Of a stretch of DNA of 64,000 nucleotides, positions 16,140-19,097 are shown piece after piece. Under the pieces are notes generated by a model that was not told where the DNA came from, did not search any database, and saw only the letters and a program-made list of their open reading frames with translations. The DNA is taken from positions 186,001 to 250,000 of the forward strand of contig NW_027191471.1 of NCBI RefSeq assembly GCF_011745625.1, given 5' to 3'. The DNA comes from Cladosporium halotolerans. Lineage: Eukaryota. The translations under genes and the position numbers were made by a program. The stretch's first letter is position 1. Each line of letters starts with the position of its first letter.

Positions 16140-19097
16140 TCACCAATGTTCAGATCTCCAATAGAAGCTTGTATCACCGTCTGTTGCAATGAGAAGGCCA
16201 TGCAAAGGCCTGCCATGTCTCGGGATGATAAGATGATTGGGCAAGATTGCGCCATTTCTGACGAGAAGCTGAACGACGTCTTTGTGGCGCGATGCAGTAG
16301 CTAGTTCCAGAGCTGGGCTATGTAATTTGCCCGAGTTTACTTCCGCGCCGTGCTCCAGCAGCATTTCTACAATACGCGTGTGCCCTTGGTCGGATGCCGC
16401 AATAAGCGCTGGATCACACACGTCGCCGGACGTCATAACGATAGCACCATGGTCCAGTAACTCTTCGACACAATCTGTGGAGCCGGCGCCGGATGCTGCT
16501 TCGAGAGCGGAACCGAGTACTTTGTGAGACGCATCGACGTCGGCGCCAGCCTCCAACAGATGTTGAACGACTGCCAGTCTATCCTTTCTGGAAGCAGCTT
16601 GTAGCGCCGTGCCGAGTTCGTCATTGGATGCGTTAATTTTCGCGCCTCGCCCCAGTAACTCTTTTACGATATTGACATGGCCGTTCGCGGCGGCAACCTG
16701 AAGCCCGGGACCGAGTTTCCCAACAGACAAATTGACATCCGCATCGTACTCCAAGAGAATTCGTACGATATCAAGATGTCCATTGCGAGCAGCTGCTGAA
16801 AGTGCGGAGCCCTGTCGATCGTTGGCAGCGTTGACTTCGGCACCATGCTCAAGCAGCTGCTTTACAATGTCAGTGTAACCCCAGAGGGCAGCAATGTACA
16901 GTGAAGAGCCCAGCCCTTCCCCTAGAATGTTGGGATCGGCGCCATGCTCAAGAAGCTTAGTAACCAGTTGTTGGTTTCCGCTTTCAGCGGCTGCCTGAAG
17001 GGCGGTGCCGTAGAATCCGCCAATTGCATTGACGGGAACCTCTCGCTTGAGCAGCATATCGACCATGTTCCCGCGACCGAAGTGAGTCGCCGCTTGTAAT
17101 GCATTGCCAAAATGCCCACCGGGAGCGTCGATAGGAGCACCAGATTCGATCAGCATCTCGAAGATCCGCTCTCTACCTATAGCCGCTGCCGCTTGGAGAG
17201 GAGTTCCAAAATACCCCTCGTCGGCGGCCAATTCAGTATCGCCATCATTGTAATCGAAAATTACACCACTGGCAAACCTGGGTAACTGCACCAGATCCCC
17301 AGCATTATTCCTCAGTTCGACCTCCAAAAGCGCTGGGGCGTCGATTATGGTGAAGATGTAAGCCTTGGACACATCGCTGGAGAATCGAAACCAATCTTCG
17401 CTCTGCCGCAGATCATTCCATTTCCTCAGATCCTGGAGAGGAAATGCCTCGAGAAAGGGGTCCTGCAAGACTCCATGCGTCTGTGCTAATTCTGAATGAT
17501 ATATCAAGCTTTCTGAGACATATCCCAGAAGTGGGAAGGAAGAGCTTGCATGCTCGCAGAAGCTTCTGGCATCTGGCGACCAGGGATGTGCCAGTAAGTG
17601 TTCTGGCGGGTCTAGAATCTTCAGTGCCTGCTCGATGTACTCATGACATTGGTGTTTGAGTAAATCATGCGCAAGGCCGATGGGGTTGCTGCATAACGCG
17701 CTATCGAGTCGGCCAATACCAGTGGACAACAAGTACTCTCTGACGGTTTCATGAATGAACTGCACCCGGTCCACGATGTCCTGATCGGCTTTAGAGAAGC
17801 TCACGAGGCCCTTGGACGCGTTCAAGATGAAAGATTCAATCTCCTGTAAATCAGGCGGCGCAGATTTCGACAAACAAATCGCTGCAGCCTTGGTGCTGTC
17901 AGCGGTGAGCACCCCGTGGTAAAGCTCCGATGGGGTCAAGGGGCGCTTTGAGAACAAAGTCCAGAGTAGAGTCGATTTGAGGTACTTCGTGTCATCCTTG
18001 CCTCTTTCTAAGATGGCATCCTCAAACAGTGCGTGCACGCCGCCTGGTATCTCATCAAGCTTGCTGAATACTGATTGGGCGTTTCCACGATCGCACTCTT
18101 TGTTCAAGATGCGCACAGCAAGAACAACCCAAAGAAAAACGCCGTGAGCCCTCTTTCCTATCTCTTTCGAGAGGTTGTCTCTAAGGGATGCCGAGACTTT
18201 CAGCGTGCTCTCAACATAGCTCACCATGTCATTGTGATGACCTTCAAGGCTGTCCAATACCAAGTGGACACATTTGGTAATGCTGATGCGAGGATAGTGC
18301 CGGCTTGAGAGACAGGTACGGAAGTGCGTACCAGCTGAGGCTGCGTTGCTTCCAAGATCCTCGAAGAACTCAATCATGTCTCTGATATCATTCTCATCGC
18401 ATTCGTCTAGCGCATCCACGTAGCAGGTAAGCCTTTCGGAGCCCAAGTGTAATACGGCATTGCGGAAGTATTCTTGGAGAAGCGCGATAGGCCATGACTG
18501 GTGCTTCTCCTTCTTACCACGGCCGCATACCTGCTCCAGTCGAGGGCATCGTTTCAAAAGCTGGTGGAGAAGAGAGCGGTACATGCCTTCCACGGAATTC
18601 TCGATTCTGGCCCCTCTCGCATTGAAGAAAAAAGAGACCACAATGTCACTCCGAATGTGTTCCTCAGCGTGCATTGCGGCGCGTTTCATCAAAGTCGACT
18701 TGCCAGCGCCTGGCTTGCCACGGATCCAAAAGAAGCCATGATGTTGCACGAGCTTGGTGTCGTCGCGCCATAGTCGGTATTCCGGTCTCTCGAAAAGCCA
18801 ACGGCACGTATTGCCATGTGCTAATTTGATCGTGTGACGCCGCGTGTCCATGCCATCGAACACCAGCGCCTCCTCCAGTGTCACTGCGCGCAGACTTCCT
18901 GGGTCACCATCATGGCTTGGGTCCTCGGGTCGTGAGAACGACTGGCTCACCGGGCCGTAGAAGATCTGGTTGCCGAAGTGTGCCTTACTGTTCTCACGCG
19001 CGCTGCAGCGACTGAAGACCTGAGGCTGACTGCTGGGGCCGGTTTCCCTCCGCGCTCTCTTGGCTGGCGGCCCCTCAAGTTCGTCTAGGGCGTCCAT
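16140..19097 (-). CDS. Fungal NLR-like protein: short N-terminal motif, NACHT NTPase, about 10 ankyrin repeats
   Basis: 985-aa intronless ORF; Walker A GKPGAGKST, Walker B CYVDALDEC, GVFLWV, FIHETVREYL; repeated G..GTALQAAA..G...IV..LL..GA.VN units. Confidence 0.92.
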   Translation of the reverse strand: MDALDELEGPPAKRARRETGPSSQPQVFSRCSARENSKAHFGNQIFYGPVSQSFSRPEDPSHDGDPGSLRAVTLEEALVFDGMDTRRHTIKLAHGNTCRWLFERPEYRLWRDDTKLVQHHGFFWIRGKPGAGKSTLMKRAAMHAEEHIRSDIVVSFFFNARGARIENSVEGMYRSLLHQLLKRCPRLEQVCGRGKKEKHQSWPIALLQEYFRNAVLHLGSERLTCYVDALDECDENDIRDMIEFFEDLGSNAASAGTHFRTCLSSRHYPRISITKCVHLVLDSLEGHHNDMVSYVESTLKVSASLRDNLSKEIGKRAHGVFLWVVLAVRILNKECDRGNAQSVFSKLDEIPGGVHALFEDAILERGKDDTKYLKSTLLWTLFSKRPLTPSELYHGVLTADSTKAAAICLSKSAPPDLQEIESFILNASKGLVSFSKADQDIVDRVQFIHETVREYLLSTGIGRLDSALCSNPIGLAHDLLKHQCHEYIEQALKILDPPEHLLAHPWSPDARSFCEHASSSFPLLGYVSESLIYHSELAQTHGVLQDPFLEAFPLQDLRKWNDLRQSEDWFRFSSDVSKAYIFTIIDAPALLEVELRNNAGDLVQLPRFASGVIFDYNDGDTELAADEGYFGTPLQAAAAIGRERIFEMLIESGAPIDAPGGHFGNALQAATHFGRGNMVDMLLKREVPVNAIGGFYGTALQAAAESGNQQLVTKLLEHGADPNILGEGLGSSLYIAALWGYTDIVKQLLEHGAEVNAANDRQGSALSAAARNGHLDIVRILLEYDADVNLSVGKLGPGLQVAAANGHVNIVKELLGRGAKINASNDELGTALQAASRKDRLAVVQHLLEAGADVDASHKVLGSALEAASGAGSTDCVEELLDHGAIVMTSGDVCDPALIAASDQGHTRIVEMLLEHGAEVNSGKLHSPALELATASRHKDVVQLLVRNGAILPNHLIIPRHGRPLHGLLIATDGDTSFYWRSEHW

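Follow-up and report, generated by a model that had tools for sequence, protein, structure and literature searches.

A HET-s-related amyloid motif behind a conserved NLS-like patch in a NACHT-ankyrin receptor of Cladosporium halotolerans

What does a fungal NOD-like receptor (NLR) signal through when no effector domain can be recognized at its N-terminus? The question is raised by a NACHT-ankyrin gene in a 64,000-nucleotide stretch of the Cladosporium halotolerans assembly GCF_011745625.1 (contig NW_027191471.1, positions 186,001 to 250,000; hereafter the window). The original prediction, made from the DNA letters, held that the encoded protein lacks an enzymatic or HeLo effector domain and starts instead with the basic patch PPAKRARR, a possible nuclear localization signal (NLS), followed by a single amyloid-signalling motif of the HET-s type. 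The lack of such a domain is borne out: residues 1-68 are disordered, and neither residues 1-66 nor residues 20-52 have a Pfam match. An AlphaFold model made with 45 aligned relatives has a mean predicted local distance difference test (pLDDT) score of 82.7 and becomes confident at about residue 70. The patch is present as well, near the start at residues 10-17 rather than at the start itself. We find that residues 24-44 are a homologue of the HET-s-related amyloid motif (HRAM), that HeLo genes with tails of the same class lie elsewhere in the genome, and that the patch is a conserved NLS consensus.

The HRAM has been defined as a 21-residue unit in which position 19 is glycine, position 15 is positively charged and positions 5, 8, 10, 16 and 18 are hydrophobic (PMC4518210). 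The window motif aligns with the definition without gaps (F5, C8, A10, K15, A16, F18, G19, N20): glycine stands at 19 (G42), a polar residue at 20 (N43) and a positive one at 15 (K38), and the hydrophobic positions hold F, C, A, A and F; the fit at position 8 is weak, and most residues there are polar in the clade and in its effectors. Among 45 hand-picked relatives, no column N-terminal of residue 78 other than G42 is invariant. Searching with residues 1-300 returned 2,082 matches, and in the set of 121 proteins formed by the best 120 of these and the query, the pattern detected the motif in 110 and the profile, with a threshold of 10 bits, in 113; both counts carry the caveat that the query contained the motif and that the profile (A1) was derived from the same set. 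The eight proteins without a profile match are five that are apparently cut N-terminally and three with other N-termini.

An independent test is provided by the reverse search, because A1 holds receptor-side sequences only (26 rows, one of them the window motif). Among 1.84 billion representatives it found 115 matches, 29 of which matched twice or more; nine of these 29 have a HeLo match (six over the cut-off) and six a weak HET-s_218-289 match, always below the cut-off. Fifteen effector tails from the multiple-match proteins were aligned (A2), and this alignment matches A1 with a probability of 97% in a profile-profile comparison and the solved HET-s prion domain (PDB 2KJ3) at E 2.8e-7. A matrix was also built from 25 effector repeats of 14 hand-picked proteins from other genomes, eight with a HeLo match and six taken for their similar tails. 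On it the window motif scores 19.5, a value reached by 0 of 20,000 shuffles, and ranks first among the 73,398 six-frame 21-mers of the window (runner-up 0.2), although the test is mildly circular because the matrix proteins were retrieved by A1, which includes the window motif row. On a receptor-side matrix of 94 motifs that excludes the window gene and its near twin, it scores 37.6. With homology found in both directions, residues 24-44 are almost certainly an HRAM homologue, and as judged from the sequence the motif is likely to signal by templating.

The predicted subclass did not stand. The second HET-s repeat, as quoted in the original prediction, agrees with the published dataset, and its S-[RK]-x-x-hydrophobic-G-N half was said there to align without gaps, but just 3 of 21 residues are identical to the window motif, compared with 4 of 21 for the r0 listed for HET-s and 8 of 21 for the published r0 AGQSFERNLIN-ESRVHFGNN, whose effector repeats have H3 (the latter two, like the first, counted by eye). 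The HRAM1 mark N3 is replaced by glutamine (Q26). H3, the mark of HRAM3, occurs in 24 of 25 effector repeats and in 30 of 118 receptor-side instances, and the window copy has Q3, as does one published r0 that is paired with H3 effector repeats (PMC4518210). From published sequences and descriptions, the motif therefore seems closer to the HRAM3/NLR12 type than to canonical HET-s or to the NWD2/HET-s class that had been proposed, and we call it HRAM3-like rather than an HRAM3 member because of Q3 and its rank on the effector matrix, where it stands at the 19th percentile among receptor motifs. HRAM5 (the HELLF type) was considered and rejected: the window has QVFS and FGN in place of the QxFG and QG(QI) sub-motifs defined for that class in a paper that also shows cross-seeding barriers to be set by class-specific residues (bioRxiv 2020.07.06.188508). 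The NLR12 motif is described as HRAM3-like, mostly unlinked to effectors, over-represented on the receptor side (mean 5.7:1), mainly Sordariomycete, and tied to unlinked PNP_UDP effectors with one motif, many receptors sharing one effector (PMC9815663).

If the motif templates an effector, where is that effector encoded? The proposed check for C-terminal double repeats of the same motif in the species' own genome turned up two unlinked HeLo genes, E1 and E2. The effector search covered loci of the HeLo, Helo-like, SesA and PNP_UDP families. There are six HeLo matches, none of them on contig C112, and two of the six encode HeLo proteins whose C-terminal end is a double repeat of the window motif class. 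E1 stands head-to-head with a motif-bearing NLR (L035 2264 onward, plus strand) as a textbook HET-S/NWD2-like pair, and its tail alone matches HET-s 2KJ3 gap-free at E 5.6e-5. E2 is an orphan: within 10 kb the profile finds no second motif and inspection by eye of frames of at least 230 residues finds no NACHT-like frame. Compared with 48,161 chains, a model of the E2 tail (pLDDT 82) matches HET-s (Z 6.8, root-mean-square deviation 4.2, 68 aligned) and HELLF (Z 5.4, root-mean-square deviation 2.1, 52 aligned) only, with Z below 8 in both cases and a model possibly driven by likeness to the solved structures; Foldseek returned nothing at E 0.001 for this tail, with HET-s and HELLF at ranks 1-4. 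The Helo-like (12), SesA (5) and PNP_UDP (2 + 1) loci have no motif within their 1.5-kb flanks, a scan that spliced or more distant C-termini could escape, and when residues 1-66 were used as a protein query against the genome, the window gene alone came up.

On the receptor side, the genome holds at least 27 NACHT loci, and the motif lies upstream in 20 of the 27 including the window gene, a count in which five have it in a separate frame taken as a putative first exon and one is weak. About 20 receptors appear to converge on two effectors. When scored on the receptor-side matrix without the window gene, repeat 2 and the other repeat reach 30.5 and 9.6 in E2, and 21.4 and -1.4 in E1. Predicting the E2 tail and the window motif as a complex, without alignments, gave a score of 0.00, which is evidence neither way. 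We consider E2 the most likely partner and E1 the second, a preference rather than a finding because the window motif has just 5 of 21 positions in common with repeat 2 of either; the chance that the partner is one of these two is slightly better than even.

The second element is the basic patch. Residues P10-R16 satisfy the class-2 monopartite NLS consensus (P/R)xxKR(not D/E)(K/R) (PMC6360766), form the sole class-2 match in the protein and lie exposed in the disordered region (pLDDT about 30). In the same source, three non-native signals, one of them sharing PAKRAR, each carried Cas9-GFP into yeast nuclei. We scanned the 45 residues upstream of the motif in the 96 of the 110 motif-bearing proteins with a leader of at least 15 residues (the other 14 were set aside). 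Of the 96 leaders, 52 contain K[KR]x[KR] (shuffle mean 2.2, maximum 8) and 32 the class-2 pattern (shuffle mean 0.2, maximum 3). K[KR]x[KR] is found in 0 of 96 downstream linkers of the same length, and random NACHT/ankyrin windows give about 1 and 0 for the two patterns. Long frames in the portions of the genome that were analysed, non-coding ones included, have them in 36 and 1 of 924 windows, and their polar windows in 12 and 1 of 149. The relatives are not independent, and K[KR]x[KR] is present in 20 of 25 clusters formed at 70% NACHT identity and in several supported branches of a quick NACHT tree, which was not used for ancestry.

The spacing between patch and motif varies, being 7-17 residues in most proteins and 11 in the window gene, and over 44 distinct patches the flanks are biased, with P at -3 in 28 and D/E at +5 in 34. 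Variable spacing combined with biased flanks suggests that selection acts on the patch itself. The patch goes with this NACHT clade, being present in 14 of 31 close-NACHT matches vs 6 of 51 in which no NACHT was seen, and a 97%-identical relative has it unchanged and differs in the motif by K38R alone. The pairing flagged by the original prediction as unusual is thus real and conserved, but it is no peculiarity of the window gene, since about half of the NACHT clade has it. Judged by pattern and conservation, we think it somewhat probable that the patch is a working NLS.

These elements can be assembled into a mechanism, in which nuclear import, fibril formation and the choice of partner are what we infer. 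A ligand would bind the ankyrin repeats and the NACHT module would oligomerize, as family knowledge suggests; by analogy with NWD2/HET-S (PMC5485727), this ligand-driven oligomerization would nucleate the r0. The r0 fold would then template the double repeat at the C-terminus of an unlinked HeLo protein, to which its homology is observed, and the templated protein might permeabilize the membrane and kill the cell as in the Podospora system. The patch, 11 residues upstream, would act as a classical NLS bound by importin-alpha and would probably hold the resting receptor in the nucleus, shield r0 from accidental nucleation, or both; importin-alpha might relocate or mask the receptor in the way that import receptors chaperone prion-like proteins (PMC10804745). 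That the gene encodes a two-component amyloid-signalling NLR with its effector elsewhere in the genome we put at about even. The wider proposal is doubtful though possible: a large fungal NLR clade might couple a classical NLS to an amyloid nucleator, either for a nuclear watch with a shared unlinked HeLo executioner or with importin-alpha as a Ran-controlled safety catch. Foreign nuclei, nuclear-targeted antagonists or envelope damage are possible targets of such a watch.

Several observations weigh against this interpretation. The Pfam families HET-S (PF17108) and HET-s_218-289 give the window motif no score, and A1 compared with PDB sequences returned no HET-s chain directly, only two chance matches. 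For comparison, 4 of the 26 A1 rows match PF17108 weakly (best E 0.014), and PF11558 matched just 38 of 155 published double-repeat sequences (PMC4518210). The Q3 of the window motif, a position occupied by H in 24 of 25 effector repeats, and its low rank on the effector matrix count in the same direction, as does the poor likeness to repeat 2 of E1 and E2 for the choice of partner. No adjacent effector is seen: across the 64-kb window and the 10 kb flanking it on either side, the profile finds the motif just once. RNA contigs from one metatranscriptome run gave three short NACHT-region pieces with no joints and left the motif uncovered. The K[KR]x[KR] pattern is absent from 44 of 96 relatives, from 15 of 21 motif genes of the species' own genome and from E1 and E2. 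Nuclear pores could still let a 30-kDa HeLo protein through by diffusion. Awkwardly for a nuclear receptor, HET-S relocates to and acts at the cell membrane (PMC5485727).

The losses of the patch among relatives and in the genome, and its absence from the candidate effectors, favour the alternative that survives best, although we hold it unlikely: the amyloid motif works, and the patch is no import signal but a charged gatekeeper that slows nucleation, or a binder of polyanions or membrane lipids near the HeLo target. A role of charge alone does not predict the fixed order of P at -3, a K-R-x-R core and D/E at +5, and composition-preserving shuffles reach 8 of 96 leaders at most. Less probable again is a motif that scaffolds the oligomer of the receptor itself, or that recruits motif proteins without HeLo, rather than a death effector. 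Such a role has been proposed for unmatched motifs (PMC9815663), and it would suit the imbalance of about 20 receptors to two HeLo double-repeat genes, the two tandem copies before NACHT in some relatives and the non-NACHT motif protein that stands head-to-head with a motif NLR on C112; against it, same-class HeLo double repeats do exist in the genome, one of them with no NLR seen within 10 kb.

A decaying paralogue, whose inherited HRAM no longer seeds, would explain the 19th percentile and the departures of Q3 and C8 from the effector consensus. The open frame, P-loop and Walker B are intact, however, the 97%-identical relative has kept the patch and changed the motif by K38R alone, and an r0 with Q3 is known to pair with H3 repeats (PMC4518210), which leaves decay improbable. 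We give still less credence to an enzymatic effector, PNP_UDP with one C-terminal motif, as for NLR12 with its unlinked PNP_UDP proteins (PMC9815663): a PNP_UDP-NACHT protein (P0080) does occur among the homologues, but neither the frame nor the 1.5-kb flanks of the single NLR-type PNP_UDP gene found in the genome contain the motif, and the two Pfam PNP_UDP matches read as housekeeping phosphorylases, the loci counts being lower bounds. Translation from Met83, which would make neither motif, is hardly credible: an overlapping upstream open reading frame (ORF) could divert ribosomes from Met1 and the RNA contigs leave the 5' end uncovered, but Met1 is flanked by G at both -3 and +4, 113 of the 121 homologues conserve the motif, which is in frame, and Met83 lies downstream of the invariant L78.

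The interpretation as an HRAM receptor with an import signal can be set beside known systems. In the HRAM3 NLR/HeLo pairs (Daskalov, Dyrka and Saupe 2015, PMC4518210), the NLR likewise has an N-terminal r0 and the HeLo protein a double repeat, and G19, the positive residue 15 and the hydrophobic pattern are shared. The effector gene is adjacent in 98 of 155 published cases, whereas none adjoins the window gene, which also differs by Q3 and by the conserved NLS-like patch upstream of the motif. With NLR12 (Wojciechowski et al. 2022, PMC9815663) the gene shares mostly unlinked effectors and many receptors per effector, but HRAMs there start mostly at residues 5-9, compared with residue 24 behind a basic patch here, and the NLR12 effectors are one-motif PNP_UDP proteins where the candidates here are HeLo double-repeat proteins. 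NWD2/HET-S of Podospora anserina (HRAM1) has the same architecture and proposed templating mechanism (PMC5485727), and effector tails of the window motif class match its structure, PDB 2KJ3; NWD2 has WD repeats in place of ankyrin repeats, N3 is lacking in the window motif and no effector gene is adjacent in the window. Among animal NLRs, NLRC5 and CIITA are transcriptional activators, and we know of no amyloid motif or HeLo partner for either. They too are NACHT proteins that are imported into the nucleus (PMC11044055). FUS and TDP-43 are aggregation-prone proteins that likewise have an import signal, and the import receptor of such prion-like proteins is able to suppress phase transition (PMC10804745); these are RNA-binding proteins with pathological aggregation, and importin chaperoning of a signalling amyloid was not found in the literature searched.

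The receptor with an HRAM is thus a known design, and the PMC4518210 dataset already holds entries with this motif type (ids beginning Clafu1); the less ordinary part is PPAKRARR upstream of the motif. We found no report that pairs a fungal NLR amyloid motif with an NLS in the literature searched, outside which most subscription papers lie, and the profile and alignment supplements of PMC9815663 may already include these N-termini. The word 'nuclear' is absent from PMC9815663, PMC12261475 and PMC12881547 and appears in PMC5485727 for nuclear magnetic resonance only. Amyloid-signalling NLRs must avoid accidental nucleation, a demand that grows stricter when the lethal effectors number one or two and serve about 20 receptors. 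Sequestration or importin masking, brought about by a conserved import signal at a distance of 7-17 residues from the motif that nucleates, would be a simple means of control. If this is true, it would count as evidence that fungal NLRs survey the nucleus and that a functional amyloid is under compartmental control, which we have not found described for them; a patch with no import function would leave an ordinary receptor of the HRAM3 type. With the orphan HeLo gene on C122 there is a concrete candidate for signalling between unlinked genes, which in PMC9815663 is suspected only.

Table 1 Features of the receptor gene (window positions) and candidate effector genes (genome and locus positions).
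Feature	Position	Strand	Remark
NACHT-WHD (winged-helix domain)-ankyrin NLR, P0001	16140..19097	-	Single open frame, 985 aa
Disordered leader, 72 aa, where the effector domain would be	18882..19097	-	pLDDT <50 at residues 1-68
PPAKRARR, residues 10-17	19047..19070	-	Class-2 monopartite NLS consensus
Single HRAM-type (r0) motif QPQVFSRCSARENSKAHFGNQ, residues 24-44	18966..19028	-	G42 = motif position 19
NACHT-type NTPase (Pfam NPHP3_N), residues 96-266	18300..18812	-	Pfam
P-loop GKPGAGKS, intact	18696-18719	-	
Walker B, intact	18402-18428	-	
Winged helix of the STAND (signal transduction ATPase with numerous domains) module, residues 373-461	17715..17981	-	PF22939 E 7e-5, under Pfam cut-off
Ankyrin repeats, presumed sensor	16227..17201	-	9 by Pfam; 10 helix pairs in AlphaFold model
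Upstream ORF, 11 codons, out of frame, overlapping the NLR start codon	19075..19110	-	
E1, HeLo double-repeat gene	G000:C217 ~1,212.2-1,213.2 kb; L035 1216-2220	-	
E2, orphan HeLo double-repeat gene among housekeeping genes	G000:C122 ~406.6-407.5 kb; L036 1216-2154	-	

No in-frame ATG lies between the upstream stop and Met1, and the next in-frame Met is residue 83. The ATG of the upstream ORF lies 13 bases before the NLR start, G stands at -3 and +4 of both ATGs, and the overlap could damp translation of the receptor. The closest named relatives among the matches listed are Cladosporium proteins with at most 54% identity across residues 1-300. Near the C-terminal tail, at 16234-16237, runs X4 and X18 are 3 bases shorter (net), and the 98 substitutions of X4 over the stretch point to strain variation. 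The adjoining genes, a GH28 pectinase, an epoxide hydrolase, hydrolases, a transporter and a Zn-cluster-like regulator (identified by eye), form a metabolic neighbourhood and were rejected as partners.

Other arrangements of the motif were also seen. Seven NLR relatives (P0043, P0060, P0099, P0116, P0119, P0124 and P0148) have two tandem copies before NACHT, unlike the single-r0 rule, and in P0122, P0140, P0172, P0178, P0190, P0191 and P0208 the motif stands on ankyrins without NACHT, internally, between subtilase and NACHT, or flanking HeLo. The non-NACHT frame on C112 (G000:C112 ~412.9 kb, L009 2730-3680, plus strand) has the motif near its N-terminus, and in the similar proteins P0155, P0186, P0189, P0205 and P0216 a KRKR-type patch follows the motif on its downstream side. 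The stand-alone NLR-type PNP_UDP frame mentioned above, or what appears to be one, is at G000:C217 (L060 1453-2448, minus strand). A HeLo protein on G000:C111 (L034 1327-2430, plus strand) ends in a different two-copy Q/N/G-rich repeat that A1 leaves unscored, possibly another amyloid class, and a SesA-domain frame on G000:C18 (L055 41-757, plus strand) has an N/Q/G-rich tail that presumably resembles the sigma/PP motifs.

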